Assembly (NCBI GenBank): GCA_016748015.1
Contig: JAAOMT010000324.1
Coordinates: 124,001-188,000, forward strand
Length of the DNA stretch: 64,000 nucleotides
Reading direction: 5' to 3'
From: Geosiphon pyriformis uo1
Taxonomy: Eukaryota; Fungi; Glomeromycota
Shown: in pieces, positions 6,680-57,900 of the stretch
How positions within the stretch are numbered: position 1 is the stretch's first letter
How the letters are laid out: each line of letters opens with the position of its first letter
The notes under the pieces: model-generated
Database searches by the model: none
The model's input: only the letters and a program-made list of their open reading frames with translations
What the model was told of the DNA's origin: nothing
Translations under genes and position numbers: made by a program

Positions 6680-6895
6680 AATACTTAGCAAGAAAGCACA
6701 ATATTAAAAAATTATAATACATTGCTTAGCAATGTGTATATTGTTAATAAATTATGATACACTGCTCAATAATAAGCACATTATTAGAGAATTATAACAC
6801 ACTGCTTAATAATAAACATATTGTTAGAAAATTATGGCATATTGCTTAACAATAAACATATTATCAAAGAAAATAGAGCACACTGTTCAAGAAAA
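6680..6895 (+). repeat. U3 tandem array type I (~40-bp unit containing the dyad CACATTGC-TCA-GCAATGTG), decayed
   Basis: Repeated cacattgcttagcaat / cacactgctcaataat units; cleaner copies at 31445-31635, 40610-40755 and 47060-47270. Confidence 0.8.
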
Positions 6896-15400: not shown

Positions 15401-15499
15401 TCCCAGACTTATAGACACAACTAATTACTACCGACTACATCAATACCTATTGACACTACATTTTAAGAAGATATTATCTTAACAAAAACAGAATACCAT

Positions 15500-15923
15500 T
15501 GTTACAGAGGATTATTTCTGCTGTTGAAGTAAATAACAACCCATAACTTGGTGCTCATGAAGCTACTTCTATTGATGAGATTCTGTGAGCATTATATCTG
15601 AAGATTTTGATGGAGTCCTTTGTATAATGGACAGAGATTCAATAGTTGTTTTATCCATAGCTTCCCAGACTTGCAAGTTTGTCAATTCTTTTCTCGGCTT
15701 GGTGGCCAGCAATCCTCTGGTAAGTAATCCGTATCTTCTGTACATGTCCTACCCTCTCGCAGAGGTCTTTTACCAGGCAATCTTTGATGTCAGTAATCAG
15801 CACTTTTCAATCAATGGATTAGTGCACAATAATAAATCAAAATAAAATAAAGAAAAATAAGAAAAAAAGAAAAAAAGAAAAGAAATAAGCCAAGAAAATT
15901 TGCAAATTAGTATCCCATCAATA
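15500..15923 (-). repeat. 3' LTR remnant of A1 (distal half only)
   Basis: Colinear with 24023-24444; similarity stops abruptly at 15923. Confidence 0.9.
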
Positions 15924-16167
15924 ATAACTCTTTTGTCAATTCTTTTATTGCTAATTTTACTTTCACCATGATTTTGTCCACCGTATTTTCAGTTTTCTTT
16001 GGTGTTCTGAGTTGTAATGTCTTTCTAGTATCTTGATATCGAATGGTTTGTTGGTTGATTGTAATCTCCATTTCCTGGTGTTGGATTAATTGAAAGAGTT
16101 GTTGTGCTAGTGTGTGAATGTTGTCTGTAATTTCCATTTTTCTGATATTTCCTGTCACGTCTACCAT
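15907..16167 (-). pseudogene. A1 ORF3, N-terminal part, fused by deletion to the LTR
   Basis: MEITDNIHTLAQQLFQLIQHQEMEITINQQTIRYQ is homologous to the ORF3 starts at 32347 and 52046. Confidence 0.78.
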
Positions 16168-16191
16168 GTCTTTATATATTCTTTTGATTAA

Positions 16192-17567
16192 TCAATTTAA
16201 CATGTTGTTGTTAATAATAACTATTGGTTCCAGATCTTGTGGAATCTCATCTGGTCGGACTAGTATTCTCTGTACTCCTAATTGTGAAATATTACTGGTA
16301 GATGGTAGTGTGATGTCACAATATGGCTTCAGTTGATCTCTATGTGTTGCTTTGGTTAAAATTTTGTTATCCAATCTTAATTTGTAAGCTTCATTTCCTA
16401 GAATTTCTTTTATGTGAAATGGTCCATCCTATTTGGGGTTGAATTTTCCACTCCATTGTTTTTCCGCTTTGGTATGATGTAGTAATACTTTGTCTCCAAT
16501 CTTGAATTCAACTGGTTTGTCTGGTAGTTGTGTTTTTCTTTTTGTTTTTCTTGTGACTTTTGAATATTATCAGCTGCTCTTCTTCATTTGTTTTCCAATG
16601 TTTCCATTAAGTCATATGTTCTTCTCAGCAATGTTTCTTGAAAATTTTCTTCTGTTATTGGTTCAGCTAGATATGTATTAATTTTTCTCTTCACTAGTAA
16701 CATTGCTGTTCTCCCATATACTAATTCAAATAGTGTTGCTTGTATAGTATTTTGTTTCATTGTTTGATAAGCAAATAGTACTGATGGTATGAACAAATCC
16801 CAATCGTTCTGGTTTTTTTGGCTGAGCTTAGCTATTGCTTTATACAGTGTTCTATTGAATCTTTCTACTAATCCGTTGGTTTGTGGATGGTATGATGATA
16901 ATAATGGTCTCTTGATTCCGAATTTTTGGCTCAATTTTGTTAATGTTTTGTTTACAAAATGAGTTCTTTGGTCTGATAATAATTCTTTTGGACATCCATG
17001 TCGACAAATCAAATTCTAATGAACAAATTTGGCAATGGATTCTGCATCTGCTCTTTGAATTGCTTTTGCCTCTGGTCATTTAGTAAGATAGTCCATAGCT
17101 ACCACTATGTATCTGTTTCCTCTGCTGGTGATTGTTAATGGTCTGACTAAATCAATTCCAATACAGTCAAATGGTTGTACCACTTTGATTGATCTTAATG
17201 GTTCACTGGGTCTTGTTTCTTCTTTTCACTGACAAGCATCACAATTTTGAACATATTGAATGATGTCTGGGTACATTGATGGCCAATAGTATTTCTTTCT
17301 GGTTCTTTCTATGGTTGCTTCTTTGTGAAAATGTTTTGCTGTTGGATTTGAGTGCATGTTGAATAATATTGTCTCTTTTTCTGGCTCCATAATTACTGTG
17401 GTTGGTTAATCTGGATCTCTTCTATTTTTTTGATAAAGTATATTTTGGTAAGTGATAAAATATTTTGATTGTTGTTTGATACTCTTTCGTTTTGTTTGAG
17501 ATAAATTCTCTTTGAATTGTTGAATGTTTATATAATGTTGCAATTGTTGATATTTTTGTATATTCAT
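16192..17567 (-). pseudogene. A1 integrase (HHCC zinc finger, DDE core, GPF/SH3-like C-terminus, no chromodomain seen)
   Basis: ATG at 17567 (MNIQKYQQL); MHSNPTAKHF...CDAC; IGIDLV; ELLSDQ; YHPQTNGLVERFN; DGPFHI. Confidence 0.9.
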
Positions 17568-17630
17568 CTTTTGTTGTATTTTTCTGTTGGTATTGTTCTG
17601 GTTTTGTTATATTTTTGGGTTGAAATGTTC

Positions 17631-20600
17631 TTAGATTTGTCCTATTCACGATAAACCGTCCGCATTTCCATTGTTTTTTCCTTTTTTATAATGTATAGTA
17701 TACTTATATGATGCAAGTGCCATTTTCCATCTTGACTGTTTTCTATCTCCAAATTCTTGTTTTTGAAGTGATATTAATCCTTTGTGATCTGTGTACACCT
17801 CAAATTTCTGGCTCAAATATTTTTTCCATTTCATAACTGACTAGTATATTGCTAAGTGTTCTTTTTCTGGTGTTCTATAGTTCTTTTCGGCCAGTGTTAA
17901 ACCTCTGCTGGTATATGCCACTGAATGTTCTCTGCTGTCTAGTCTTTTTTAAGATAGTACTGCTTTTAATGCCTGGCCAGATGCATCTGTGGTGATAATA
18001 AATGGTTTGCTGTAATCTGGATAGATCAGTACTGGAGCTTGTATAAGCTTTCTTTTTAGAATATCAAAAGCTTTTTGTTGACTTTCAGTTCATTCATATT
18101 TTGTATTTTTGTTTTGCAGTTGGTTGAGTGGCTGCACTATCTTGGAAAAGTTTTTGATAAAATGTTGATAGTAGCTGGCGAATCCCAAGAATGATTTCAG
18201 TTCTGTTATATTGGTCAGCACTGAAAAGTTTTTTACTATCTCTATTTTCTCCAGATCCGTTTTGATGCCATTTTTGCTGACTATGTGTCCTAAGAATTTT
18301 AGTTCTGTCTTGCCGAAGAAGCACTTTGTTGCATTTAACTTTAGTCCTGCTCTTCTTAGTCTTTCGAACACTTGTTGAAGATGATGAAAATGATCATCAA
18401 ACGTTTTTGAGAATACATTGGTGTTGTTCAAGTATACAACTACTGATTTTCACAATAAGCCAATATAAACAATTTCCATTAGCCGTTGGAAAGTTGCTGG
18501 GGCATTGGTTAAGCCGAATGACATCACTTCAAATTCGAAATTCTTTTTTCTAATAGTAAATGCTGTCTTCTCTTTGTCAGCTGGATTCATGGCTACTTGC
18601 CAGTAACTGCTGTCCAAATCTAATGTTAAGAGCCATTTGTTCCCACTGAAAGCATCGAATAATTCCTGTATTCATGGAGTTGGATAACTGTCTCCACAAG
18701 TTACACCATTGAGTTTCCTGTAGTCTACACAAAACCGGATTTTTCTATTCTTCTTATGGATGAGTACCACTGGTGATGACCATGGGCTCATTGATAGTTG
18801 AATTAGCCCCATTGTCAAGCATTCTGTTTATTTCTTGACAAATGATTTCATGGCTGGCTGGTGGTACTCTGTATGCTTTTTGTTTGATTGGCATTGTATC
18901 TCCAGTCTTGATCTGATGCTGGATGATGTCAGTTCAGCCAAACTCATTTTCACTGGCAAAGATGTCATTAAAATTGTTGAGTAACATTTTGAGCTACATA
19001 CATTGAAGTGGATCTAAGTTTCCTATGTTCATTTGTTCCAATTGTTTTGGTTGGAGCAAATAACATTCATCTCGTTCATAGATTGTTTGTGATGTGATGT
19101 TAACATATCCACAAAGTTGTGGAAAGTCTAAAATGGGGTTTGGTGGTTGGTCTTCTATTTCTGTGGTTACATATCTGATGGTGATTCCTTCTGGTATGTT
19201 GATGACATTACCAGTGTTGTTGTAGATAAGAATTTTTATGCTGCTATAGCTTTTGGCTGGTATGTGGAGATTGATTAACCCAATCTCTTCTGATTTACAA
19301 AGGTTTGCTTCAGCTTCAAAAATTTGTCCTTGCTTCTTTTCTTTCCTTCCTATTGTTAACATGTACTGGCTATATGGTGGAATGGAAATAGCTTGACCAG
19401 TTGAGATAATTTCTTCTTGGCCAACAATTTCTTCCTCTGCCATATTAACTGGTACATCTATTCTACCCATTGATCCAAATCCCTGTATTCTTCTCACTGT
19501 TATTCTTAATTCCTCTCTCTTTTCCACTAATACTAACTGAGCTACTCTAACCACAAGCAGAAATATTGTCTGTGCTATTTTTTCATTGAGCTCTATTATG
19601 TAGGCCTTTTTTGAGTCATTTTGTAGCATAGCGATGATATTTTCTACATATTCTGTGTTAATTATTTCTCCTCTTATATTGATCTCTCTTTTTGCTAAAC
19701 TACTCCTAGATGTTAATTGAACTATTGTTGTTGCCAGAATTTCTAGTGCTATTTTCAGATCAATGCAGATGTGTGAATGCGGTTCCAATTTGATGGCATT
19801 ATTTCCTGGATATCTCAGATCAAACCCTGCGTCCGTATAATGCACATGTTCTGGCATAATACCTTCTCCATTGTCACTATACCATTTCAACTCTTGTTCC
19901 TTGGAAAGATCTGGTAGTGCAATGTATTGTTTATGGTTTAAATCAGAGTTTGAATCTGAGTTGGAATCATTTTTGTTGTCATTGTCATTTTGAACAGAGC
20001 TGGAACCGATGTTTTTGTCATTATCGTTGGAGTCTGAATCGCAATTGATCAGCAATTCTGATTCCGATGCACAGCTGCTGATTGGTTTTTCTTCTTCAGG
20101 GATCAAGTAGATTATGCGTGGTGGTAGATTGTAAAGGAGGTCACAATCATCACAATATTCAAAGTCACTGAGAATTAAACAATGGCGACACAGTCTTGTA
20201 TTCAACTGTGCTAGCCATTGTTCTTGCTCTTTTCTAGTGGGTGCCAAGTTTTGGTAGTGTTCATGGAACTCTTCAGGTTCCAGAGAATTTATGGCTGGCT
20301 TTGCATTCCAGTTAAGCTCGATGAGTTCTGGTAAGTTGTTTTTGATTTCTCTGATTTCTTTGGGTGTTGCTCCTTCTATTTTGGCGATTGCCATTCTCCA
20401 CAATTTGTTGTCATCGTGTGGACAACTGTCTAGTCACTGCACGGCTCTTCTCCAGGCTGCTTCTATTGGGGTTCTTTTCCTTATCCAGTCACTTATTAAA
20501 ATTGTGTATTAACACAACACGTCACACGTTCCTTCACGTCCTGGGATGTTGTTCCACATCCCTTCATCTAGTAGGGTCTCCCCACAAGTGAGACAAGATT

Positions 20601-23600
20601 GGTTATCCCATTTTCCTTGCCTCTTTGGTTGTTCAAAGCATTCAAATAAGCATGGATGACAGTAAAACTTTGTTGTGGTGTGGTATTCTTCATCATTGCC
20701 ACAGCATGCGCCTATTGACAACAGTTTCTTACCGCAATTGACACATACCAGCCTTGGCCATTGATAATTGGATTGTTGTAGAGTGTGGTGGATGTAGGAA
20801 TTATAACTGTTGGTCGTTGGTGGTGTTCTTTCTTCCTTTTCTTTTCTTTTTCCCTTATCTTCATTCCATTCCCGACTTGAGGCTTCTTCTTGTTTATTAT
20901 TGGTCCAAGTCAGATCGTTGGTTTCCCAGGTAAGTTCCTTTCTTTGCTTTCCCTTAGGGTTGTCGTCTCACAATAGTACTGGTGGTAGTTCGTAGTGGTC
21001 TTTGTTATTGGTCCCAGCATCAATAGTGGTTTTACAGGTAGGTTTTTTTCCATTGTTATTGTCGTCCTAGGCGAGTATTAATGGCAGCTCGTTGTGGTCG
21101 GCGTTGGCCCATGAAACTTGGTACACTTCCCAGGTAAGTTTCTTTTTCTCTTTCTCTAGTTTGATCAATAGTTTCTCTTTTGGAGGAGTCTTGAAATAAC
21201 CACACGTGGCCGGTACACATATGTGTTGGCCCTGATATGTTAGCTGGAGTTCCTGGGTGTTCCAGTCTAACATTACGTTGACTTTGAATAGCCAGTCATT
21301 ACCAATGAGAGCTTGATATTGAGTGGCTTTCATTACTAGAACTTTAATAGGAGTCACAATACCATTGACTTCGAAAGAGAAGTCATCGATTTCGCTGATT
21401 GGAGTTTTGGTTGCTCCATCAGCTGTAATGACTCTGGCGCTGGCAGCTCAATCAACTCGGCAACCTAATTAATCCATGAGTTGTCGTGTGATGATACTGC
21501 CTGCTGAACCGCTATTGAGAATCAATTTGATGGATTGACCATCAACCTTAGCATTTGTGTACATCGCAGTGATGGGTTTTTCATCAAGAGTGGCTCCACT
21601 AAATAATGGTGTACTTGACAGTTCTTCGATCTCAAATGGGAAGATGGCGGCTAGTAATTCGTTGTTGGTAACTGTTGCTGACAGAATATTGCTAATAAGT
21701 GTTTGTTGTTTTTGGATGGGTTCTTGGTTGCTAGTTGAGGCATCTTCTGGGGTAACCAGGAGACTTAAATAGTGTTGGGAAGTCAGGTTTTGGGTGGCAC
21801 CTGTACCCAAATTCCGAGAACGGGGTCTTAAGCTCTGGTGAGAGGAGCTGGGGACCGGTTAATAAACAATCATTGCCGATCTCCAATTTTGAGCAATTCT
21901 GGGTCTTGGGTTTCTTGCTGTCATCGTAGCTGAGTTTTGGAGCAGTGTTTGGATTGATGGTTGAGACCAATAAATTATTTGGGGCTGTGGCTGATAAATT
22001 ACTGGAGGTTGCTGTTAATAAATTGCTGAAGGCTGCTGTTGATAAATTGATATACTGGCAGTTGATAAATTGGTTGCTGCGTCATTGGCAAGTAAGTAGT
22101 TTGATATTGGTCTTGATTTTGATTCAAATAACAATTCGGAGTTTGGAACTGGCAATTGGGATTTCTGTATTGATTTTTCAATCATTGGTTGCTATAAGTA
22201 TGGCAATTAACTCGAATATGGTCTTGTTTACCATAGTTATGACAGACACGCATTTCCAGCTGCCATGGTGGACTAGGTGTAGTCAAAGATAATAACCGTG
22301 ATTGATTTTGGAAATGATTTGCATTTCCTGAATTATGGCATCGTTGTGGTATTTGATATATGGCGCGATTGTCAGCTAAGTATTCCTCTAGTTTCTGATT
22401 AATTGACTTACTGAATTGTTTCAGTTTGGAGTCCAATTTAGATGATCCATTCATTACTAGGTTTACTGCTTGGGCATGGTTGGCTTCTAACTTAGCTGTT
22501 TCAAAATCTCTGGCATGTATAACTGCGGTAGGGAGGTCAACTGGATGCATTGGGCGTACTCACTGGAAAAGGTTACTGCACAAATCTCTAATAAATTGGT
22601 TTAAAATCTGTGGTGCTGTAAAATAGTCAGCTTGAATTGCTTGGATCTGGTGTAGGTTTCTATGGAAGCATCTTAGGTAAGTGGTAACTGCTTCAGTATC
22701 TCCTTGTTTGATGGTGGTGAAAAGATTGGCTAATTTGTTGATACTATTATTGTTGCTGAAATATCTTATGAATTCCATCTTGAAGTTGTTGAAGTTTTGG
22801 GGTTTAACAGCTAGACTTTAATACTATGCATCTGTGGTGTCTTTTAAAAAGTATGGGATGGCTTGAAGTGCTCGGGCGTTATTTCATCCGTTCACAGTGA
22901 TGGCTTTCTCTATGTCATTCAGCCATACTTGTACATTGTCTTCTTTGCCAGTAAAGTTGTTAAGTTTTGCAATTGGTGCATAGGCCATTGGATCTAAGTT
23001 GGGTTGTTGTGGTGGCTGTTGAAGTGGTTGTTGTTGTACTGATTGTTGGGGTAGTAGTTGAAATGGCTGTTGTATGGGTTTGGCTACTGGATTAATTGGC
23101 AGTTGATCGATGATAATTACTGGAGGTAAGTTTTATTGATTACTTAATTTGGGGTTTGGATTGTTCTGCCTTTGATGATTCGGGGTTTCAATTTCCAAAT
23201 TTTCTAGATTTAGACTTTGCTGAGCTTGAAAATTTGGGGTTTCAACTTCTGGGTTTTCAGTGATCAGGTTTTGATAAGTAAATTTTTGATCTTCCAATTC
23301 TTCTTCTTCTTCTTCAGATAGTTCCCATAGGGTAGCAATTCCAAAGTCCAGTTGAGGCGACAGTGATCGAATTTCTGATGGAGTTGGTGATCGTGATTTA
23401 AATCCTTTAAAATACACTCCATATGGCCCTAGTAAATCTTCTTTTTGTTGTTTGCTTTGGAACTAGAATCTTCCAATTGTTAATATTGCATTTGAGATGG
23501 ACGTGTCTGCTGATGAGATGTTGATGGTGCTTCCAAGTGTGTAGTGATATAATGAAGTGGTTGGTGATTTTACTCTGTGCTTCTTCCAACTAGGTAACTG

Positions 23601-23963
23601 TATTCCTTTTGGTGTTGCTGCTGGTGTTTGTATTCTTTCTTTACCTTTGTCTGCATAGATAATAGGAAATTGTTGTTGAGTGTATCTTTCAATAGTCTGG
23701 TTGATTTCTCTGATTATTGGTGCAAAACTATAGTTCCTTGGTAAGTTGGTGTGTTGGAATAATTCTGTGTAAAAGTTTTCTCTTGCTACTTCAATGTTAA
23801 CTGTTCTTCCTAAGCATTCAGTGATTTTGTCATTGACATAAAAATTGAAGGCTGATTTGGCTGGATAATGATTACTGTTTAATTCTAATTGTTGGCTGTA
23901 TTGTTGAAACAAGGATTTTGCGAATCCTAAATGGTTTGCTCCTATATTTTCTGATTCTGCCAT
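17631..23963 (-). pseudogene. A1 Gag-PR-Cys-rich-dUTPase-RT-RNase H polyprotein pseudogene
   Basis: ORF-track fragments: MAESENIG..., capsid (AKLNNFTG..VWL), CHNYGKQDHIRVNC, LILNSGSAG, DAGFDL/RSS/EKIAQ/GFGS, RFCVDYRKLN, LKFLGH, YTDHKGL, NADGLS. Confidence 0.92.
19460..19860 (-). other. dUTPase domain within A1 ORF1
   Basis: All five trimeric dUTPase motifs are recognisable: DAGFDL, SRSS, (G)II(D)xxYxxxI, EKIAQ, R(G)xxGFGSxG. Also present at ~13190-13570, ~35620-36004, ~42660-43050 and ~48460-48755. Confidence 0.9.
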
Positions 23964-24003
23964 ATTTAGATTTGGGTTGGTACTGGTTCTCTGTAGGATT
24001 ATA

Positions 24004-24022
24004 CCTCACAAGGAGCACCAAA
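24004..24022 (-). promoter_or_regulatory. Primer-binding site TT-TGGTGCTCCTTGTGAGG, elongator tRNA-Met-like
   Basis: Lies directly after the LTR end; variants at 39961-39979, 9563-9581 and 8404-8422. Confidence 0.8.
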
Positions 24023-24870
24023 TGTTACAGGAGATTATTTCTGCTGTTGAAGTAAATAACAACCCATAACTTGGTGCTCATGAAGCTACTTCTATTAATA
24101 AGGTTCTGCGAGCATTGTATCTGAAGGTTTTGATAGAGTCTTTTGTATAATAGACAGAGATTCAATAGTTGTTTTATCCATAGCTTCCCAGACTCGCAAG
24201 TCTGTCAATTCTTTTCTTGGCTTGATGGCCAGCAATTCTCTGGTAAGTAATTTATATCTTCTGTACATGTCCTACCCTCTCGCAGGGGTCTTTTACCAGG
24301 CAATCCTTGATGTCAATAATCAGCGCTTTTCAATCAATGGGTTAGTGCATAATAATAAATCAAAATAAAATAAAGAAAAATAAGAGAAAAATAAAAAAAA
24401 AAAAAATAAGCCAAGGTGATTTGCAGATTAGTATCCCGTCAATAGCCATGATCAAGAGCTATTGTTCCAGTGTGGTTAAGTATCACTTATTATCAACATG
24501 AAGTGTTAATAGTGGAAAGTGGATTGAGATATGAAATAATTATTTATTTGATGATTTTTGTTTCTAGGCTAAGGATTCTGTGGTATTGATTCTGTCTTTT
24601 CTGTTTTTAATACTACTGCTATATATACATAATTGAGATTTCTCAATTCCTCAATTCTTTACGACAGGAATCCTGAAATTCCTGGAATCCTGCAATTCCT
24701 TTGAGAGGAATCCTGGAATTCTGAAATCCTGTAATTCCTCGTCAAAAAATCCTGAAATTCCTGGAATCCTGCAATTCCTGAGAAGAATCCTGGAATTTCA
24801 CATTTACTATGCTTACTTCTGATTGGCTAATAATTATGCTAATATATTTCTTATATTTCTATGAGTAATA
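24023..24870 (-). repeat. 5' LTR of A1 (848 bp)
   Basis: Termini t(g/a)ttac...gtaaca; type II array; TATA-like tgtatatatagc at ~24618-24630. Confidence 0.92.
24645..24800 (-). repeat. U3 tandem array type II (GGAATTGCAGGATTCCAGGAATTTCAGGATT-like units)
   Basis: Repeated tcctgaaattcctggaatcctgcaattcc on the + strand; also at 25665-25830, 7435-7560 and 4010-4090. Confidence 0.85.
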
Positions 24871-25589
24871 CCATATAAAAACAAGCCCGAAATTATTTTA
24901 TTTAAGACAACCAACTATATCAATAAGAATATTGAAACTGTCCCACCTTACAATAAGTTATCAAAAACAGTGAAAAAGAAACTATATTACATAGTATGCA
25001 TTCTGATCCAACCACAGAACATTTTAACAAAGATGCTATCCTTAAAAGAATCCTAAATTTATACTATTGGCCAATAATATACAAAGACATTTTCAAATAT
25101 ATGCTTAATTGTAACTTATGCCAGCAAAGAAAAGGAGCCAGAACAATGAAACCACTTTGACTCATTCCAGTTGGAAATCTATTTGATAGAATTGAAATCA
25201 ATTTGATTGGTTTTCTTTTTATAACATTCAAAAAAAATTGTTATATCACTGTAACTGTAGACTACTTGACAAAATGGCTAGAAGCCAGAGCCATCCAAGT
25301 AGCAGATACTAAAACAATAGCTGAATTTGTATATCAAGATCTGATTTGCAAACATGGATGCTTAAAAAAACTCCTATCTAATCAAGAAATGCATTTTGTT
25401 AATAATACATTAACTAAATTAAGTTAATAGTTTGAAATAAAATATTCTTTATTGTTACCATATCACTTACAAATAAACAGACTAGTAGAACAATTTAACC
25501 AAATACTGTGTAAAACATTAGCAAAAATAAGTTATGAAAATAAACAAAAATGAAACTTATTTATATTTTCTGTACTCTTTGCATACCAA

Positions 25590-26525
25590 TGTTACTCATA
25601 GAATATAGGAATTAAATATTAGTACATAAATTAGCCAATTAGAATAAACATAGTAAAAGTGAAATTCCAGGATTCTTTTTAGAATAATTGCAGGATTCTA
25701 GGAATTTCATGATTCTCATATAAGAAATTGCAAGATTCCAGAATTCCAGAATTCCTCTCAAAGGAATTGCAGAATTCTAGAAATTCTAGGATTCTTGATT
25801 AGAGAATTGAGGAATTCAAAGAATCTTGTACAATAAAATTTATGTATATATAGCAGTAGTATCAGAAGCTAGAAAATTAGACTTTTAGAATCAGTAGAAC
25901 TCTCAAAGTCAATTAGACTTACAAGTCATAATTATTAGAATCTTTTAGCTAGAGACCTCTCAATTTAGATTTAATCTAAGCAACCTTTTATATTACAAAT
26001 ATCTAATAAATAATTATTTATTATCTCAAATCTACTCTTCACTATTAACACTTTATATTGATAGTAATTGATACTTAAACCACATTGGAACAATAGCTCT
26101 TAATTACAGCTATTGATAAGATACTAACTTTTATTATCTTGGCTTATTTCTTTATTTTTTTTTATTTCTTTTATTTCTTTTATTTTTATTTTTATTTTTT
26201 TGTTGTGTACTAATTAATTAAAGAATTAAAATACTGAGTTATTGACATCAAAGATTGCCTGGTAAAAGACTCTTGCGAGTGAGTAGAGCACGTAAAGAAA
26301 TTATGAATTACTTACCAGAGGAGTACTAGTCATTAAGCTAAAAAAAGAAATTGACAGAATTGCAATTCTGGAAAGCTATAGATAAACAACTATTGAATCT
26401 CTGTTCTCAACCAAAACCTTCAGATAAACAATACTTTCAAATCACTATCATTGTGAAATAGCTTCTGAGTACCAAGTTACAGGTTTTGTTATTTGATTTA
26501 AAACCCCAAATAATCATCTATAATA
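25590..26525 (+). repeat. Solo LTR (family A, type II array) inside the B1 integrase
   Basis: tgttactc...taata termini; TSD ccaa/ccaa; integrase sequence gcataccaa|acactaaa resumes afterwards. Confidence 0.92.
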
Positions 26526-27902
26526 CCAAACACTAAAACAAAATATGACTCAGTTCACACCATTTAAATTAGTTTATAGAAGAAAAGCCATTCTACCTAT
26601 TAAAAGAAAAATATAGTCATACCCAACAGAAGCTATCACTAAAGAGAATTTTAGAGTGATCTTATACTATAGAACATACTAGTTCATGGAAATATTAGAA
26701 AATAATCATAGAACAGCAGTTGACAACATTAGCAATGTTCAGAAACAACAAAAAGAAAGATATGATAAATGTCTATCTGAACAACCAATGAAATTCAAGA
26801 TTGGAGACCAAGTACTATTACATTATACAAAAGCTGAGAAACAGTGAAGTGAAAAGTTCAATCCAAAGTAGAATAGTCTATTCTATGTACACAAAGTTTT
26901 AAGCAATAGAGCTTACAAATTATGATTGAAAGACAGAATTTTAAAGAAAGTAGCACATAAAAATTGGTTAAAAATTTATCATGCAAAACAAAAATTATTA
27001 TTATCAATATCTCAACTAGGAACACAAATTTTATTAATCAGACCAGAAAATATATCACAAGATCTGAAACCAATTATCATTATCAAAACGTAAACAACAT
27101 ACAGCAAATTAAATTAAGAAATTTAAAATATATATAACATTTAAAAAGCAGTAAGAAATGATAAAACTTTCAACATAGACCTATTAGATCAAATTTTACA
27201 ATTCTTAAAACAACTATTTAATGCAATTTAACAATTTTCTGCTTAAATAAAAGTAATAATTGATAGAAAAGAGATATAATATAAAGATAGGAGCAAGAAA
27301 AAGGAGGGCAAAAGTTCAATTAGAACTAACCAGTCCTATTCTTATCTAATGCCTGAGAAAGAAAATTGGAAAAAAAATTTCTCTCAGGTGGGACAGAGAA
27401 TAAAAAAAGTTAATAAAAGATATTTGGTTCCTGAGTTTGAAAAAATTAAAGAAGCTTTAACTCATGAGACTGAACTCTCCAAAACAAAGGAATAAACATT
27501 TGACAATGCCCAAAAATAAAAAAAAAGACTTCTTCCAACATATTGGTTCTACAAAATTGGTAAACAACTAGATTTGAAGACATTATATGGAGACCTTAGC
27601 CAGAAAACTTTTAACAAAGAAGCAATACAACAAGTAGAAAAATTTGTAGGGAAAAACAATTTGACCCTATATTACAAAGCAACATACTGATTATATGTTG
27701 CTTTTCAATATTGTTCAAACATACTGTTATATAAATTCATAAAGACTATAATAGTTAATAACATAGGATGAATAACCAATTGACAGTTCGAAAATCTACA
27801 AAAAACAATACTTAATGCAACTATTGAACACTACATAAATAAAGCCATAATAACAGATACATATAATTTCGCAGAAGCTCAATTTTAAAAAGAAAGAAAT
27901 AA

Positions 27903-43800: not shown

Positions 43801-46800
43801 AATAGTATTATTTATGAAGATAATTATTTAATTTTATGAATTTAAAAGTTATTTGATGCTTTTAAAAAAAAAAATTGTTCTTAACATTAGACTTAGATAG
43901 TGGTTACTAACAAATAGCCATAAATCTAACTAATAAAAAAAATAGTGTTTACCACCAGAGAAAAAAATTTTGAATTTAATGTTATACTATTTGGCTTAAT
44001 TAATGTTCCAGTTACTTTCCAATAACTTATGAAAATTGTTTATATTAGGCTGCTATAAAAATCAGTAGTTGTTTATTTAGACAACACCAATATGTTCTCA
44101 AAAAGATTCAATGATCATTTTTATTATCTCCAACAAGTGTTTAAAAGATTAAAAAGAGCTAAATTGAAATTAAATGTAACTAAATGTTTCTTTGGCAAAA
44201 CTAAACTCAAGTTTTTGGAACATATTATAAGCAAAAACATCATCAAAACAGATTCAAACAAAATCGAAATAGTTAAAAACTTTTTAGTATCAATTAACTT
44301 GATAAAACTAAAAACATTTTTGGAATTTACTAGATACTATTACCATTTTATCCAAAACTTTTCCAAACTGACCCAACTATTTCACTAGCTTTAAGTAAAG
44401 AATGTTAAATATAAATGAATGAAAACTTAACAAGAAGCTTTTGACATCTTAAGAAGAAAGCTTATTTAAACTTCAATATTAATCTATTTAAATTACAACA
44501 AATTATTTATCATTACTACTAATGTATTTAGTCAAACATTGAGAACTGTATTGTATCAAAAAGAAGCAAATAAATAAGAACATTTAATAGCATATGCTAA
44601 TAGAAATTTAAGTTCAGCCAAAAAGAATTATAACACTTTAGCATTAAAATATTTAGCTATCTATTGGGCTATTATCAAATAAAAAAAATATTTAAGTTAA
44701 AAGTTTGATGTATATACTGATCACAAAGAATTGACATCATTTAAAAGCAAAAATTTGAAAATAATTGCCATGTAAGATGAAAATAGAATTATTACCATTT
44801 AATTATACTATACATTATTAAAATAGAAATGCTAATAGTTTGTTACAAATTTAACAAATCTAAAAACATTTTAAACAAAAAATATAACAAAAAATAAACA
44901 CATAAAAATATCAAAAATTCTAATATTATATTAATACTCAGCAGTTCAAAGAGAAATTATCTCAAAAAAAACAAAACAACATAAAACAACAAGCAAAATA
45001 TTTTATTACTTACCAAAATATATTATATTAAAAAAACAGAAAATACCTAAATCAGTCACTTAAAGTAATTACAGAACCAAAAAAAGAAACAATATTGTTC
45101 AACATGTATTTAAATTCAACAACAGAACATTTTTATAAAGAAGCAACTATAAAAAGAACCAGAAAAAGATATTATTGGCCAGTTATATATTCAAATATCA
45201 TTTAATATGTTTAAAATTATGATGTTTGTCAGAAAAAAAGAGAAACAAGACCTAGTGAACCACTAAAACCAATTAAAATAGGACAACTATTTAATTGAAT
45301 TGAAATTAACTTAGTTGAACTATTAATAATAACCAGCAAAGACAATTAATATATAGCAGCAGTTATAAACTATCTTATAAAATGGCCAGAAGCAAAAGCA
45401 ATTCAAAGAGCAAATGCAGAATTTATAGCTAAATTTATACACCAAGATTTAATTTGTTAACATGAATGCCCAAAAAAATTATTATTAGATCAAAAAACTT
45501 ATTTTGTAAACAAAACATTAACAAAATTAAGTCAAAAATTTGGAATTAAAAGACTATTATTATTACCATATCATTCCCAAACAAATGACTTAGTCAAAAA
45601 ATTCAACAAAAAATTGTGTAAAACAATAGCCAAGATTAGCCAAAAAAACCGGGATAAATAAGATTTGTTTATACTATTAGTATTATTTGCTTATTGGACA
45701 ATAAAGCAAAATACTATATAAGCAATACTATTTAAACTTGTTTATAGTAAAACAGCAATATTATTAGTTAAAATAGATATCAACACATATCTAACAAAAC
45801 CAATAACAGAAACCAACTTTCAAAAAATATTGCTAAGAAAAACATATGACTTAATGAAAACATTAGAAAACAAAAGGCAAAGAGCAGCTAATAATATACA
45901 AAAATTATAGACAAAACAAAAAAAACAACATAATAACCAATTATTAGATAAACCAGTTAAATTCAAGATTGAAGACAAAGTATTCTTATATTATACCAAA
46001 GCAGAAAAACAATAGAATGGAAAATTTGATCCCAAATAGGATAGATCATTTTACATTGAAGAAATTCTAAAAAATAAAGCTTATAAATTAAGAGAGAACA
46101 ACAAAATCTTAGCTAAAACAGCACATGGAAATTAACTGAACTATATTACAATATAATATCATTATTTACCAGTAATATTTCACAACTAGAAATACAACAA
46201 ATACTAGTTCAACTAGATAAAATTTTATGAAATCTAGAACCAATCATAATTATTAACACAAACACATCAGATTAATTTACAAAATAGTATATAAAAAGAC
46301 ACAATATATGCAATAAAAACAACAAGAAAAGATAAAAATTTCAGACCACATCTATACAATAGTGTAATAATTATTCCAGACTATAAATCAAAAACAATTA
46401 GATATGAAAATTGTTATTAATTATCAAACAATTTGCTATTAAAACACCAAAAAAGAAAAAAAAACAAGAATTACCTCATATTATTGACCATAAAACCAAA
46501 CAATACACTAGTTAGATAAAATTATAAAAAAAATAAAAAACACTTTTGGAAAAATATTAGTGATAATTTTAACAAAAAAGCTAACCAAAAAAAACTAAAA
46601 GCAATAAATAGAACAACTTCCAGTATCATATTGTTATTATTAGTTAGGACAAAAATTAAATATTCAAAAATTATATATCAATAAATCCAAAATAATATTT
46701 AATCAAAAAATAGTATAACAGATTGAAAATTTTATTGGAAAGAAAACAAATTTTAGACTATATATTAAAACAATTTATTGACTACACATCATATTTTAAA

Positions 46801-47995: not shown

Positions 47996-48524
47996 TCATT
48001 AAAATTTATTGAATTTGTTTTTATTCTAAATTCAAATATTTTTGCTAATATTATAAGTAATACAGAACAATTTCATAAACATTACCAAGAATTGGCATCT
48101 ACTTAAGAAGAGCAAAAACAGTATTTAAAACAATTAAATACTAAACTCTGTAAATATTGTTTAATTTTTAATAATTTTAAATATTGTAATAAATGTGACT
48201 TTATTTATAATTTATTATCATGTATAATTTATTCAATTCTTAAGAAAAAAGAACCAATTAGTAGATATGTTTCAGAATTAAAATCAAAAATCAATTATAA
48301 TTCAGATTTTAATAATAATAATAACAATAATTCTAATAATATTAACAATAGTAATAATAATAATTTAACTTCAATTTAAATTTTAAACACTATATTGTGT
48401 TTTCAAATTTTTCTATGAAGCAGAAAATTAAATAGTTCAGTAATAATAATGAAGATATTATGTTTAAATACATCTATAATATTAATATAGAATTTAATCT
48501 TAAATATCTTGAAAAGAATAATCA
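47996..48524 (+). mobile_element. Very decayed family-A fragment (end of the Cys-rich domain to the start of dUTPase)
   Basis: Colinear with 42190-42710 (EQFHKHYQELA, LNTKLCKYC, KYCNKCDFIYN). Confidence 0.75.
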
Positions 48525-50583
48525 TGTGAAGAAAGGAATCAATGTAAAAAGAGGAATCATTAATGCTGGATATACCGGAAATATCATTGTAATACTACAG
48601 AACAATTTGGATAAGTCCTACAAAATAGAATCCCATGAAAAGATTGCCCAAGCCCTCTTTCTGCCCTTAGTCAAACTACCCCAACTAACCCTGGTCACAA
48701 CCCAAGCAGAATTAAGCCTCACTGCCTGAGGAATCAGTGGGTTCAGATCAAGTGGAAGAGAAAATGTACCAGTCAATCTCATAGAGGAAGACAGTAACCA
48801 GGTAAAACTTATCTACACTGACACCATTATTTCTATCCCTTTCTATTGATAATATATCTTTAAGGTGAATTGGAAGATTTAAGACCAAGTCCTGATATTT
48901 GAAGCCAACTCTAAAATTTGTGCCCTAGCAGATATTGCTAACTTATATCTCCCAACAAAAACTCATAAACACTTCAAAATTCTCATTTACAATCTGACCG
49001 AAGATGTTATAAAAATTCCTGAGGGAATCCTTGTCAGTTCCATATCCACAAATATTCAGAATCCCAAAAAACCCCAGTCTATTCCAGATTTCGCGCAATT
49101 ATTCTTATTCTGTGACATTACATTCCAAGTATGGAATTTGCCAAAAGAAAGTTATCTGTTCACACCAAAAAAAATTAATAAATTGAATTTAGGAAACTTA
49201 AGTACCCTGTAACAAATGCAACTTAAAGTCTTTCTAAAACAGTATGCTGATGTCTTTGCCAGCGAAAATGAGTTTGGACGTACTGACATTGTGAAACACC
49301 AAATCGATACAGGAAATGCTTGACCGATTAAGCAATGAGCCTACTGAGTACCCCCATCTAACGATAACCTTATTAAGCAAGAAGTGCAACAGATGCTTAA
49401 TAACAGTTTAATCAAAGAATTGTTAAGCCCTTGGTCCTCTCTAGTAGTCTTAGTTACCAAGAAAAATGGAAAAGTGCGATTCTGCGTGGACTACAAAAAA
49501 CTAAACAGTGTTATGCGAGGAGATAGTTATCCCACTTCCCTAATCCAGGAAATTCTGGACAATCTAAGGAAAAAGAAATAGTTCTTGTCATTAGATTTAG
49601 CCAGTAGTTATTGGCAGATTGAAATGGACCCCAAAGACAAAAGAAAAACAGCATTTACCACTCAAGATGGCAATTTCAAATTTAATGTAATGTCTTTTAA
49701 ACTTTGTAATGCTTCTGCCACTTTTCAATGCCTCATGAATGTAGTATACAAAGAAATCCTTTGGAAATCAGTCGTAGTTTATCTGAATAACACCAATGTG
49801 TTTTCAGAAACATTTGACGACCATTTGCTCCACCTTCAATAAGTGTTTAAACGCCTTCAAAATGTCAGATTAAAACTCAATCCCAACAAATGCTTTTTCG
49901 GAAAAACCAAACTAAAATTCTTAGGGCACATGATCAGAAAAGATGGAGTTAAGCCCAATCCAGACAAAATCCAAAAAGTCAAAGACTTCCCAGCCCCAAT
50001 CAACTTATGAGAATTACAAGGATTTTTGGGATTAGCAGGATACTATCAAAGATTCATTAAGGGATTTTTCATCATTGCAAAACCCCTCCATTACTTGTTA
50101 TCCAAATATGTACCATACCTATGTAAAGAAGACCAGCAGAAAGCGTTTAACTATTTCAAGCAGTGATTGATCACCTCTTCAATATTGATCTATCCTGATT
50201 TTACCAAACATTTCATTGTCGTTACAAATGCCTTAAAAAATGCACTAGGAGCTATTTTATCTCAGATAGGATCAGACAAGAGAGAACATCCAATTGCATA
50301 TGCTAGTTGTAGCACAAGTCCAGCAGAAAAAGTATATAGTGCAATAGACTTAGAATGTCTTGCCATTTATTGGGCTGTACAAACTTGAAAACATTACCTC
50401 AGTCAACTATTTGACTTCTATACTGATCATAAAAGACTTATTTGATTACTCAATAACCCACAGCTGAAAGGAAAATATGCATGATGGAGCACTTATTTGC
50501 AACAATTTCCACTCAAAGTCCACTACAAAAAAGGATTCAAGAACACAAATACTGACAGTTTGTTGAGGATGCCACAAATCTGA
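48525..50583 (+). pseudogene. B2 dUTPase-RT-RNase H; one frame with point stops only
   Basis: ORF fragments at 48460, 49384, 49585 and 50167 and the TGA at 50581 are all in the same frame. Confidence 0.9.
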
Positions 50584-50593
50584 TCTCAGACCC

Positions 50594-51961
50594 ATAGACA
50601 CAACCACCTACCAACAAATACATCAGTACCTATTAACACTATATTTCAAGAAAATCTTATCTCAACAGGAACAGAGTATCATACAGAAACAAGCAAAAAA
50701 CTACTTTATTCAAAATAACCAACTCTACCATTGAGAATAACAAAATCACCTCACTTCACAATGATTAATAAAAAACAGTGAAAAAGAAACCATATTATAT
50801 AGCATGCACCCAGATCTAACAGCAGGACACTTCAACAAAAATGCTACTCTAGAAAAAACAAGCAACCTATACTATTGGCCAACAATATATAAGGATATTT
50901 TTGAATATGTTCTTACTTGTGATTTATGCCAAAGAAGAGGAGAAGCAAAATCAACAGAACCACTTTAACCCATTCCAGTTGAAAATCCATTTAATAAAAT
51001 CAGGATTGACTTGGTTGGTCTTCTCTTAATTACATCTAAAGGAAATCAGTATATTGCTATAGCCATTAACTATCTTACAAAATGGCCAGAAGCCAGAGCA
51101 ATTCAAGTGGTTGATGCCAAAACAGTCACTGAGTTTGTACATCAAGACCTAATTTGCAGACATGAATGTCCAAAAAAATTGTTATCCAATCAAGGAATGC
51201 ATTTTGTCAACAGTACGTTAACAGAATTAAGCCAATGGTTTGGTATAAAACATTCTTTATCATTACCATACTACTCACAAACAAACGGACTGGTAGAACG
51301 GTTTAACTGAATTCTGTGTGAAGCACTAGCTAAAATAAGTCAAGAAAATGAACAAGAATGGGACTTATTCATACCTTCAGTACTCTTTACATACCAAACA
51401 CTAAAGCAAAATATGACACAATTCACACCATTCAAACTAGTCTATGGAAGAAAAGCCACATTACATATCGAATAAGAAATATCGCCTTACCTAACAGAAA
51501 CAATCACCAAAGAGAATTTTGAAGTTACCTTATACCAAAAAATATACCAGCTAATGGAAATATTAGAAAACAACTGAAGAACAGCAGCTGATAACATTAA
51601 TAATGCTTAAAAATGGCAAAAGGAAAGACATGACAATCGCCTATCTGAACAACCAATAAAATTCAAGATTGGAGACCAAGTACTATTACATCATACAAAA
51701 GCTAAAAAACAGTGGAATAGAAAGTTTGACCCAAAGTGAAATGGTCCATTTCACATACAAGAAGCTTTAGGAAATAGAGCTTACAAATTACAATTAGAAG
51801 ACAAGATTCTAAAGAAAGTAGCTCATGGGAACTGATTAAAAATTTATCATGCAAAACAGCAGTCATCATCATCAATACCTCAATTAGGAACACAAATTCC
51901 ATTAATCAGACCAGAAGATATATCATGAGATCTGGAACCAATCATCATCATTGAAACATAA
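50594..51961 (+). pseudogene. B2 integrase, separate reading frame (456 codons)
   Basis: (M)DTTTYQQIHQYL...MHPDLTAGHF...CDLC...TNGLVERFN...GPFHI...IIIET*; +1 relative to RNase H. Confidence 0.87.
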
Positions 51962-52045: not shown

Positions 52046-52780
52046 ATGGATCTTTCAAATCAAATTCTACAACTCTTAAAACAACTGTTTGATGTAATTC
52101 AACAGTTTTCTGCTCAAATAGAAATAACAATTAATAAAAAAAAGCTATGGTACAAAGATAAAAGCAGGAAAGAGGAGAATGAAAGTTCAACTAGAACTAA
52201 ATATTTCTTTCCCTATACACCACCCAAAAAGCAATATTGGAGGAAAAATTGCTTTTGGGCAGAAGGTGAAAAAGAAAGAGAGAAGAGACGAGAAAAAGGT
52301 TACAAAAGAAGATACTTGGTCCCTGAAATAGAAGAAATTAAAAAATCTTTATCTCGTGGAACCGAACTTCCCGAAACAGGGGAGTGGACATTAGACAATG
52401 CCCAGGAATAAAAAGAAAGACTTCTGTCAGCCTATTGGTTCTACAAAATTAAAGAGCAGCTTGACTTGAAAACATCATATGAAGACCTCAGCCAGAAAAC
52501 GTTCAACAAAGAAGCAATGCAACAGGTAGAAAAATTCATAGGAAGAAACAACTTAATCCTATATTACAAAGCAGCATACTGACTATACGCTGCCTTCCAA
52601 CATTGCCCAAACGTACTACTAAACAGTTCTATAAAAACCATAATGGTTAACAACATAGGACGAATAACCAATCAACAGTTTAAAGACCTACAAAAAGCAA
52701 TACTCGAGGCAACCATCGAACATTACATGAATAAATCCATAATAATAGATATATACGGTTTTGCAGGAGCTCAATTTTAA
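52046..52780 (+). pseudogene. B2 ORF3, 244 aa, unknown function
   Basis: 735 nt from ATG to TAA in frame, with two point stops; homologous to the family-A ORF3. Confidence 0.82.
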
Positions 52781-53791: not shown

Positions 53792-54926
53792 ACATATAAG
53801 AATTAAAGAAAAAAAAAAATAAGATAACAACTTTTATCTCAATCATTCTTTTATCACAAATTTTTTTTTCCCTACCTTTAAGTATCTGAACATTTTGGAA
53901 TAAAAGATTACTTATTGGTTATTTTTTACCCTTTTTCTGAAATATGTAATTATAGTATTTGAAGATTATTGAATAAAACATAACTGAAGAGTACATCTGA
54001 TATCTGATATTGAATTCTAAGAATGCTGATATAAAACATAGAATTATACCAGTATATGATTATTTGTTGACAATATGGACTATTTTTCTACTTTTAGATT
54101 CTCCAATTATCTTTTGAAAAATATAGCAATTGAAATATTTTATGAAACTGATCTTGTATATTAAATTCATATTTATTCAATTCACTCTTTAAAATTGAAT
54201 TCTCTTTGATTTCTTTCATCATTTTACAATCTTGTTCTTTCTTGCTATCTATTAGCTTGTTACTTCAACTCATAACAGTATTTTAAAGTTTAGTATTGTT
54301 TTGGTTAATTTAAATAACCAAACATTTTTAAATATATGTATTTTAAATATAACTATTATTAATTTTAATTTTTACAATATATATTAAATTAAATAAAAAT
54401 TTATTTATTTATTAAAATAAAATTAAAAACTATATTAATATTATTAATAATAAATATATAAATATGTTTATAAATATATTTATAATTTTACTTTTTATTT
54501 TGTTTTTTAATATTAGTAAATAATTTTTTATTTTTTAAAAAAACTGTTTTTAAAAATACTTATTATTTTATAAGTTTGTTTAATTTTATTAATTTTGTTA
54601 AAGCCAAATATGTTAAAAAATTTGTAAATAAGTTTTAATTTATAATTTTAATCTAAAAACTGTAATAATATAATATTTTAATAGATATTTATAAATTGGC
54701 TTAACTAACTTAATTTTTACTGTTTTTTATTTTTATTTTTAAAAGTTTTATATATAAAATTGTTTATTATTTTAAAAAAAAACTATATAAATTTTTTTTT
54801 TTATTTTATTTTAATGAGTAAGGTCCAAACACTACCTAGTACAATACATCATACAAGTGATCTAAACTAAGTGTGAATCATGCTCTTTCTACACATGACC
54901 AGCCACTCAGACTAGTCAGGACAACA

Positions 54927-57900
54927 CTAGGCACTTATACGCACCAAGACCAAGTTACCTACACCTGAAAAGAATAAACTAGATTTACGAAACCCAAAAC
55001 TAACACCAAGAGCATCAGTAATACCCAACAATTTAACTACACCAGACGAGAGCACCAAAGGAAGACCAGAAACCGAGATAGGAATAGAGCCGTCACATGG
55101 GATCAAGCCACCTTTCTCCATAACAGCTCTGTGTTTCACACGCACCAGCCAAATATCATCACAGAATGCAAGACAGAATTCGCGAACAAATGCCACAATA
55201 TTTTGAGCCGCCGTTTTAGAGTCCTTGAAAACAGAAAGAGATTCACGATACCACTTATTGAAAACAAAGCCCTTACTTATAACCGTACTAACAACAGCAT
55301 TGGAAGCGCAATCAGAAAGCAACTGTGAAACACATGAAGTTGAGTGAGACAAACCCGAGCGCATTTCCCAAACAGATGCATGAGTGTTCATCAACCGAGC
55401 ACGATCACTAGCATCAAAAGGGCAAGAAAAAACATGATCTGAAATCTCAACATTACCACAAAACAAACACATCACACTGGGGTACCCCTTACTGTACAGT
55501 CACTTACACACAGCAACAGGAAGATGATAATGCAACGCCTTCATAAAATATGTCCAAAAACTAGCTGTATGAGTACTAGTAAAACCAGCGGCCAAATGAG
55601 AGTCCGAATGTCACACCAAACATGATCTGGACCAATCAACATCAGCATGCAGACTGTCCACCAAAACCTGAGAACCAGAACCAACCTCTCAATATGCATG
55701 GTAAATAGAGCGGAAAACACCACGAACAAAATGTCTAAAATTACCAGAAACCACAGCACCACCAGCTCTGAGAAAATGTTCATTGATCCTATGAAGAAGA
55801 TGCACACCAGAAGACGCAGCAGCCCTAGCCAAAGTGTCAGCACACTCATTGCCCAAGACTCCGGAGTGACCTCTAACTTTAATTCAATTAACATCCAAAT
55901 TCTTGCAATGAATGACATTAGAAATATGGCAGCGTTTGACCCAACACCGATTTCTAAAATCTGGATGATCCAATATTAACTCTGACTTGCAAGCATCCAA
56001 AGCGGCCTGGCTGTCCGAAAACAGATTGACCAAACAAGAAGGAGGAATGCACTTGAGAGCCAAAGAAATGGCCTGTAACTCCACCATGGTAGAAGAAACC
56101 AAACCAGAAACTTCCACACCCAAATTCAAATCAATGTCCCCAAAAAAAGCAGTGGCGCCAGCCTTCATACTAAGAGTACCCAGCCCATACAGAGAACTAT
56201 CTGTAAACAAAGAAAGGCAATCAGAATCAACCTCCAACAAATGATTGCAGACAACATCAAACTCACAAGACTTAAGAACATCAGACAAGGCAACATTCAG
56301 TGGTGAAAGAGAGCAAATGGGAAAAGACCCAGAACCAGACAAAAAGTGAACAGCAACATTGAACTAATCAGGAACTGGGCCCCAAGGGTCCAGTCTCTTC
56401 CACCACTTGAAAGTCCTCCATTCAAAAACAGAACCAGTTTGATCGCAAAACTGCTCAACAAAAGCAATTCCATATTGCCAAAGTGAAGAGACACATTTAT
56501 AAAAAACTGGCTCGCCAAGAACAATAGACATTGAAGTTCCTTTTTGAAAACAAAAAGCTTTGGTCATGAGACCACCCAGAGAAAGGTCACAACCCAAAAA
56601 AATTCAGACAACACCAGCCAAAAAATTATTCAAAGGACTGACACTAATATGAGAAGGAAAAAGCAGAGGGTGGTGAGAGCGCCAGCTAAGAACTTGTAAG
56701 TCATGAGATCTATGTGCGAACAAGCAGTCTAAGATACCCACAGAATTAGCGAAGCAAACAACAGCAGCTGACTTGCTCTCTGCCTGGACCTGTTCAAAAG
56801 ATTTCAACCCATACAAAGAAGGATGATGAACAGCATTATTGGAAAAATCGAGCAGTAGGCCAGATTTGGACTTCAAAACTTTACAAATTATAGTGTCCCA
56901 TTTTGCACACACACTAATAGAAACAAAACTAAACTGAGTCCTATAGACAATTATGGGGTAAAGAACCACTGAGACCAAATACGAGAACTGCTTATCAGAA
57001 ATAGCTTTTCTTAGAACAACATTGGTGAAGAACCTGACATTCAAGTGTGCCTTAGCCAAGCTAGGCTTCGACAAACCTTCAGTAGACAGAAAGATACCCA
57101 GGTATCAATGAAACTTTCCCCTTTTGGCTATCAAAATAGGCAAACCACTGATCAACAAATGAGGATCGGAAACTCTGCAATTAATGAAAATAGCCACCGT
57201 CTTGTCATTATTGATTGAGATGTTATTGACTCAAAAGAAATCACTAACAACATTGAAAATATGTTGGATGGCAGCCTGGCTGCTACCAATTCAAATCGTA
57301 TCATCAACGAAAGCACCAGCTTTGAGGAAAGAAGTTAAACCAGCCTGAGATTCAGCGTGATCAGTGTTGGCAACACAACAAGAGTCTAACCTGTATCCAC
57401 ATACACTTTCTTGTCTCTTGACTTCACACAAAAGAGGATCATAAAATATGCGCCAGAGAAGAGGAGAAAACACCTCCCCTTGGTTCAAGCTATTATGAAC
57501 CTGATATCCATTGGTCAACCCAAAATTCATCATAACTCTGTTGAACTAATCATTGTAAATGCTACCAAAAAATTGAATGAATTTGTTACACATCTTTATT
57601 CTAACCAAGCTTTTTCTCAGATGTTCCCAACCAACAGAGTCATAAGCCTTCCGCATGTTCTGCAAGACCAGCCACAGCTCTCGGTTCTTTTCCAAAGCAT
57701 CTTTTATGACCAATCCAATAGCAAAAATAGGAGATTGCATTGTTGTACCTTTTAAGACAGAAAAATTATCCCCTCTCAAAACATCAAAAACACTACAAGC
57801 CAAAAAAATCCTGTCCAAAAGCACTTTAGAAAGGACTTTGCGAGCTGTCTCAATCAAAGCAATAGGATAGGTATTTGTGAGAACACCCTCCCATTCATAT

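Follow-up and report, generated by a model that had tools for sequence, protein, structure and literature searches.

Integrase encoded apart from Pol, behind a conserved stop codon, in Ty3/Gypsy-type elements of Geosiphon pyriformis and their relatives

Retroelements at the locus

The DNA analysed here, a stretch of 64,000 nucleotides from the glomeromycete Geosiphon pyriformis that we call the window, has a GC content of 29% and consists of nested, decayed retroelements. Five copies of LTR elements from two families can be recognized, namely A1, A2 and A3 of family A, and B1 and B2 of family B, and across the five copies Gag, protease (PR), dUTPase, reverse transcriptase (RT), RNase H (RH) and integrase (IN) are encoded. 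Element A1 has inserted into the integrase of B1, which is further interrupted by a solo LTR of family A. The principal features are as follows:

15500..24870, minus strand: element A1, with LTR ends, the 4-bp target duplication CCAT, gag-PR-dUTPase-RT-RH, IN and ORF3
about 24023-24870, minus strand: 5' LTR of A1
15500-15923, minus strand: shortened 3' LTR of A1, 92% alike to the 5' LTR over 424 nt
24003..24020, minus strand: putative primer-binding site of A1, a TGG tract recognized by sequence, 2 nt inside the 5' LTR
15411..27090, plus strand: integrase of B1 in three pieces (15411-15499, 24871-25589 and 26526-about 27090)
25590..26525, plus strand: solo LTR of family A within the B1 integrase, with the 4-bp target duplication CCAA
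27175..27177, plus strand: start of B1 ORF3, now ATA
48502..50583, plus strand: dUTPase-RT-RNase H section of B2 Pol, in a single frame
52046..52411, plus strand: B2 ORF3, 121 aa, with no Pfam match

The LTR termini of A1 are of the TG...CA type, with one end decayed. In A3, matches to PF03732, PF19259 (below the cut-off) and PF13975 point to a Gag with a Ty3-type capsid and an aspartic protease, and both domains are undamaged in a relative from our metagenome scan (locus L009). The best solved relative of the integrase profile is Ty3 Gag-Pol (7q5b, E 2e-47), followed by the integrase of PFV. The residues H72, the H79 region, C109, C112, D139, D199 and E235, which make up the HHCC and D,D-35-E signatures, are invariant in 85 relatives and partly decayed in the window copies. 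The closest RT neighbors are Gypsy-type Pols, in trees built from sequences other than named reference lineages, and those relatives that bear names come from Rhizophagus and Cetraspora (Glomeromycota), which would by itself suggest a host akin to that group of fungi. By structure and domain order these are Ty3/Gypsy LTR retrotransposons that lack the canonical single Pol-IN frame: they share with members of that group (Metaviridae, e.g. yeast Ty3) the LTRs, the 4-bp duplication, the primer-site tract, the Ty3-type capsid and the order PR-RT-RH-IN, but their integrase lies outside Pol.

Two further remnants were noted in the window. Positions 4100-5830, with 12% GC, are a leftover of the IN/ORF3 region of family A in which C>T decay has advanced further. 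A decayed LINE-like element occupies 54900-61700 on the minus strand and 1-900, where endonuclease-, RT- and RNase-H-like stretches can be discerned by eye; a Pfam search with three pieces of it gave no match.

The RNase H-integrase junction

In all five copies the Pol frame is closed by a stop in one and the same alignment column, 11 residues past the N of the NAD motif of RNase H:

15398-15400, plus strand: B1 Pol stop TAA, followed by the spacer 15401-15410 and the integrase start ATA at 15411
17633-17631, minus strand: A1 Pol stop TAA
33786-33784, minus strand: A3 Pol stop TAA; the integrase start is lost in a 59-nt deletion
44861-44863, plus strand: A2 Pol stop TAA, followed by a 30-nt spacer and the integrase start ATA at 44894 (junction 44861..44896)
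50581-50583, plus strand: B2 Pol stop TGA (TAA in most family copies)
50584..50593, plus strand: B2 spacer of 10 nt, directly after the stop
50594..51961, plus strand: B2 integrase ORF in the +1 frame, with an ATA start (ATG elsewhere), 456 codons and 12 stops including the terminal one
17568..17630, minus strand: A1 spacer of 63 nt, A-rich and unstructured, containing another in-frame TAA (17609-17607)
16200..17567, minus strand: A1 integrase ORF with its own ATG at 17567-17565 and one frameshift near 16535

The initial annotation had described the end of RNase H as NADxLxRxxQ(I/T)-stop in every copy. The stop is indeed present in five of five, but the motif holds only in part, reading NTD in B2 and NAN in A2, and its Arg codon has become a stop in A1 and A3. 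The other features it had read from this region were borne out. Both B1 and B2 have a 10-nt spacer followed by ATA-GAC in the +1 frame; this ATA is probably a decayed ATG; other copies of family B show ATG there, and the ORF3 start changed in the same way, with ATA at 27175 in B1 as against ATG at 52046 in B2. B2 is free of net frameshifts, since 694 codons, beginning with dUTPase and running up to the stop, lie in one frame and the 456 codons of the integrase likewise in a single one, and A1 has an integrase ATG of its own after 63 nt. This ATG falls on the same integrase residue as the ATA of family B. In A1 and A2 the integrase shares the frame of RNase H and sits behind two in-frame stops. 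The stop and spacer of family B read CTRAT-NN-CAG, which looks like a branch point followed by a splice acceptor, possibly by chance.

Persistence of the stop among genomic copies

One objection is that the element was an ordinary fused one and that its copies, once dead, acquired the stops by decay of CAA or CGA codons. C>T decay is certainly heavy in these copies, most commonly in the CpA context, and has produced many such stops in each of them. Nevertheless, among 378 gap-free in-frame codon columns of RT-RH the maximum is three stops of five, with no column at four or five; the product of the per-copy stop rates at CAA/CAG/CGA/TGG columns is about 0.001, a figure that treats as independent copies that are not. 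A wider set of columns contains one further five-of-five stop, farther upstream, in a stretch over which A1 has lost the frame.

Other genomic copies were sampled through the contigs of run X1, which may derive from the window's own sample and whose depth is not equivalent to copy number. For family A, 1658 contigs cover the A1 junction, and a total of 35 variants reach 3%. The stop at 17631-17633 and the second stop at 17607-17609 carry no such variant, while the bases flanking the former do vary, at 17630 (63 contigs) and 17634 (29 contigs). At a decayed Arg codon just five codons upstream (17648) the ancestral letter is retained in 36% of the depth, and since no other letter reaches 3% at the stop itself, the latter is not a product of C>T decay. 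The family A integrase start is ATG in about 87%. For family B, represented by 352 contigs, TAA stands at the stop in 9615 of 9714 units of depth, no variant occurs at 50581 among the 40 of 97 variants listed, and ATG is seen at the integrase start in five contigs, at 452 of 2003 units of depth, and also in loose ends.

The warning in the initial annotation that CAA>TAA decay is common was well founded as regards the extent of decay but not as an account of this stop, which is fixed in copies where decayed codons are not; moreover, undecayed relatives are split at the identical place (see below), leaving an origin by decay with next to no chance of being correct. The comparison of codon states across genomic copies and relatives that it had proposed found the stop kept and ATG at the integrase start, and its counter-expectation of young copies with an in-frame RH-IN fusion, in family B as well, failed to overturn the separate frame. 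In the family A spacer, positions 17585-17629 form a run of 45 nt devoid of variants at the 3% level amid neighboring coding DNA that varies; this may be either a conserved signal or an effect of assembly.

Intact relatives with separate Pol and integrase

Among the Pol relatives ranked 3 to 37, 29 of 35 end no more than 32 aa past the RNase H motif, five have no motif and one runs on; over all Pol matches the corresponding figure is 45 of 120. For instance, Rhizophagus irregularis GBC38296.2 is a 1338-aa Gag-Pol that terminates at the RNase H motif. On the integrase side we considered the best 120 of 864 matches, admitting only proteins of 179-573 aa; in the column of the A1 ATG, 100 of these have Met and 20 a gap, with no other residue seen, and 94 of the 100 begin at that Met. 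The length filter and the gene callers both favor Met starts, though not in that particular column.

A metagenome scan with the alignment of stand-alone integrases, and hence with a sampling bias towards them, yielded 544 loci, of which the best 80 were studied. The integrase start could be placed in 67 (in 54 by column 1 of the profile and in 13 by the first Met), and the RNase H end also in 43; left out were L082 and L084, whose starts are unsure, and the viral contigs L001 (a fused control) and L002. The 43 loci with both ends represent 40 distinct families, none has a fused junction, and the integrase ORF is unbroken in 32. Locus L009, with a 1612-aa Gag-Pol followed by a 424-aa integrase, illustrates the arrangement. 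Searching the viral contig collection with the integrase alignment returned nothing. The genomic copies and the intact relatives thus agree in upholding the central claim of the initial annotation, a separate integrase ORF after a conserved stop. We have very little doubt about the Pol stop, about the integrase having a frame of its own, about the conserved Met at its start or about the spread across the clade: the separate integrase is a clade-wide feature rather than a peculiarity of the window locus.

A few relatives are fused. Among the longer integrase relatives are three close NCBI gene models, of which P0244 and P0245 join RT to IN without showing the junction ends, and P0246 has no RT match. 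True fusions come next, at 36-40% identity (P0247, P0248 and P0253), and in P0247 RT-RH-IN and the ORF3 of the relatives all lie in one frame. P0034, P0244 and P0245, high-scoring NCBI models that lack both the RH end and the IN start, were rejected as fusions; they probably represent joins across predicted introns. In an RT-RH tree of 87 rows a single branch (SH-aLRT 96) separates 24 fused from 53 split rows, where split means, for protein rows, a short tail only. After the addition of 23 further fused rows, all 53 split ones fall in a clade (99) beside four fused and five unlabelled rows, and an AU test on 71 rows does not reject a clade made up of split rows alone (p-AU 0.925). Three long-branch viral RTs without integrase, used as the outgroup, place the root on the split side, a rooting that we do not trust. 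One possible history that fits is a single origin of the split by fragmentation of a polyprotein.

Translation of the integrase

A stand-alone integrase would need a different route of expression and packaging. The start itself is, judging from its context, a real start codon: a purine occupies -3 in 60 of 67 integrase starts as against 249 of 393 internal Met codons, G occupies +4 in 53 of 67 as against 117 of 393, and the second residue is D, E or N in 66 of 67. Met followed by D, E or N is the pattern for acetylation by NatB. In 24 spacers of 6-170 nt we counted 11 ATGs where 23.4 are expected. Across the 43 loci the integrase lies in frame 0, +1 or +2 relative to Pol in 10, 20 and 13 cases, and the Pol stop is TAA in 24, TGA in 10 and TAG in 9; as all three frames and all three stop codons occur, readthrough or one single frameshift is ruled out. 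Spacers range from -20 to 943 nt, with 13 of 43 overlapping (as TAATG, as ATGA or by -8 to -20), 21 of 0-100 nt and 9 above 100 nt; stop and start are 10, 30 and 63 nt apart in the window and within 100 nt in 34 of 43 loci.

We propose, with a probability of roughly 0.5-0.55, that the integrase is produced by terminating ribosomes that restart on the full-length RNA. Ribosomes would terminate at a true Pol stop after RNase H and restart nearby at the integrase's own ATG on the same RNA, by a short backward or forward shift at overlapping junctions, and by a short scan across the AUG-poor spacer (10 nt in family B, 30-63 nt in family A) at spaced ones. This would keep integrase below the level of Gag-Pol, and the free protein, beginning with Met-Asp, Met-Glu or Met-Asn, might reach the particle by attaching, at its site of synthesis, to the genomic RNA or to Gag/Pol, with no need of release from Pol by the protease. 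Several observations sit poorly with restart. Some of the spacers above 100 nt are probably due to a stop that came too early in a Pol tail, but those of L014, L046 and L059 are long for restart; none of the junctions in the window is an overlapping one, and position -3 is C in family B; and in 22 loci a hairpin within or beside the spacer would hinder scanning. Restart after a long ORF normally requires a helper element, none was found in the window, and the calicivirus TURBS core UGGGA occurs upstream in just 2 of 14 tight junctions.

The strong context of the start and the scarcity of AUGs ahead of it would suit equally well a separate subgenomic mRNA for the integrase, transcribed from a promoter inside the element or spliced to an acceptor immediately 5' of the ATG. 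Such an mRNA would also accommodate the spacers above 100 nt in 9 of 43 loci and the presence of ORF3 after the integrase in about 25, so that several downstream cistrons need access; further, in B1 and B2 alike CTRAT-NN-CAG is found 4 nt upstream of the start, and the A1 ATG is directly preceded by AG. Foamy virus Pol, too, is made from a spliced mRNA. However, the relatives have no fixed acceptor, the last AG lying at positions that vary between -2 and -93 and being missing altogether in 5 of 29 spacers, the family A spacer is rich in A and lacks a pyrimidine tract, and overlaps of -1, -4 and -8 that a separate mRNA has no need of recur across unrelated families. The evidence favors stop-restart over this route, which is possible but distinctly less probable. 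Recoding into an ordinary Pol-IN fusion, by readthrough in family A and +1 frameshifting in family B, would be in keeping with the shared frame in A1 and A2, with the +1 frame and stop-U context of both B copies, and with the in-frame TGA-CTA that the clade has at junctions further upstream (8 of 13, picked by hand). Against it stand the two fixed in-frame stops of family A, single contigs with spacer changes of 32-34 nt in that family, the variety of frames and stop codons among relatives, the occurrence of TGA-CTA at 0 of 10 in-frame integrase junctions, and the invariant Met in start context, which would be unnecessary; we regard it as very improbable.

A further alternative is that an RNA element before the integrase start recruits ribosomes internally or processes the RNA, families with short spacers having a reduced form. 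It draws on a two-helix motif of about 40 nt, present in 22 of 86 sources with a single occurrence per locus and located in every case close upstream of the integrase ATG:

L009 5189-5236: two-helix motif
L011 4460-4506: two-helix motif
L020 582-629: two-helix motif (19 further loci have it)

The helix ends 3-10 nt before the ATG in 20 of 22 cases, being adjacent (by eye) in L030 and 32 nt away in L018. Eight of ten pairs change on both sides and 95.8% of the cells pair, in an alignment that was fitted and whose sequences are related. None of 500 shuffles matched the motif score and slid controls scored far lower. A purine-rich bulge of 12 nt begins with GGUGNAA, which we take to be reminiscent of T-loop motifs. 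In the tree the motif tracks with elements that have long Pol tails. Rfam applied to 17 motif-bearing loci gave four weak matches, none on the motif, and exact pattern scans found no instance in viral or genome contigs. As a general means of expressing integrase the element is nonetheless improbable: it is missing from most loci with an integrase start and from the window, where a covariance model search did not find it; 19 of the 22 loci built the model; most of the folding energies do not stand out (z -3.1 to +0.5); and a role in packaging or in binding a protein would suit it just as well.

Comparison with known systems

According to the available text of PMC3248453, pol is one polyprotein of AP, RT, RH and INT. 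The accessible part of PMC2774666 recognizes five states of the integrase, namely downstream of PR, downstream of RH, both truncated and reversed (REM1), lost, and upstream of gag (PVCV), and a separate downstream integrase ORF is not distinguished among them there. A separate downstream DDE integrase in an LTR element is undescribed in the freely accessible article text that we searched; no such description occurs in the accessible portions of PMC2864245, PMC3248453, PMC2774666, PMC2836005 and bioRxiv 2021.03.30.436303. Stop-restart has precedents elsewhere: the available text of PMC5972666 lists the UAAUG of influenza B, SART1 and LINE-1, the last with a spacer of 63 nt, equal to that of A1. 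With such termination-reinitiation systems (influenza B M1/BM2, calicivirus VP1/VP2, hypovirus, SART1 and LINE-1 ORF2) the present elements share overlapping or close stops and starts, and their relatives have the same TAATG and ATGA junctions, but here there is no TURBS core. Stop-restart is unreported for an LTR-element integrase in the literature examined, and our proposal of it here draws on the junction sequences.

Stand-alone Gypsy-like integrase ORFs are also characteristic of the Ginger1/GIN DNA transposons, and an origin of Ginger1 from a Gypsy element is raised in the accessible part of PMC2836005. The likeness we draw is one of layout; the integrase here lies within an LTR element beside RT-RH. 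We also considered whether this might be a Ginger DNA transposon, with terminal inverted repeats and no RT, and rejected the idea, given that the integrase sits between RT-RH and an LTR.

Foamy viruses (spumaretroviruses) make their enzyme ORF without Gag and package it non-covalently. Foamy virus Pol keeps RT-RH-IN in one precursor, whereas here only the integrase is set free.

Implications

In LTR elements and most retroviruses the loading and dosage of integrase are, in the textbook account, secured by covalent linkage in Gag-Pol. Our broader picture, which is tentative and which we hold with well under even confidence, is of a large undescribed Gypsy lineage, typified by arbuscular-mycorrhizal fungi, whose Pol has been broken into a polycistronic Gag-Pol/IN/ORF3 arrangement; free integrase would arise by stop-restart, and in one branch a new class of structured RNA might drive initiation or tether integrase to its genome for packaging. 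If true, packaging of integrase without a polyprotein would be seen here for the first time in an LTR element, and the lineage would make a plausible stepping stone both towards integrase-only transposons and towards reverse-transcribing elements that have no integrase. A successful lineage that dispenses with the Gag-Pol link would offer natural material on how integrase is recruited and dosed, and is likely an added case of polycistronic translation in eukaryotes. The analysis of the window contributes junctions with a spacer, a test of the stop across genomic copies, a hairpin sub-lineage among the relatives and fused relatives. There are also consequences for annotation: gene callers fuse the two ORFs over the junction or label the integrase a DDE transposase, and filters for intact elements that demand one Pol ORF would overlook active copies.

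Further features of the relatives

The ORF3 that follows the integrase in about 25 loci is conserved, about 140 aa long and predicted to be all-helical, for example:

L042 5455-5871: ORF3
L011 5890-6330: ORF3
L030 3694-4140: ORF3 (about 22 more loci have it)

Its structural model is confident (pLDDT 94.8), and it had no match in Pfam, Foldseek or VIA (best Z 4.8), with uninformative matches in Atlas; the window ORF3 has no detectable kinship to it. In L055 the ORF3 (6546-6941) has a helix-turn-helix match (PF13412, E 8.5e-06). Domains appended to Pol also differ among relatives: some have dUTPase or NUDIX domains, and L033 926-3013 has a thymidylate-kinase-like P-loop domain after RNase H (PF02223, E 0.0016, below the cut-off). 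In-frame TGA-CTA is found between Gag or protease and RT in L019 (2882), L029 (3290), L036 (902), L059 (2926), L079 (1585), L014 (870), L033 (372) and L049 (3552), and as we take TGA-CTA to be a readthrough signal, these sites are likely read through. In L033 and L049 the protease, too, is split from RT. Finally, Gag ends with TTTAAAC(TAC)TAG followed by a likely hairpin in L053 (244) and L055 (1975), presumably resembling a -1 frameshift site.
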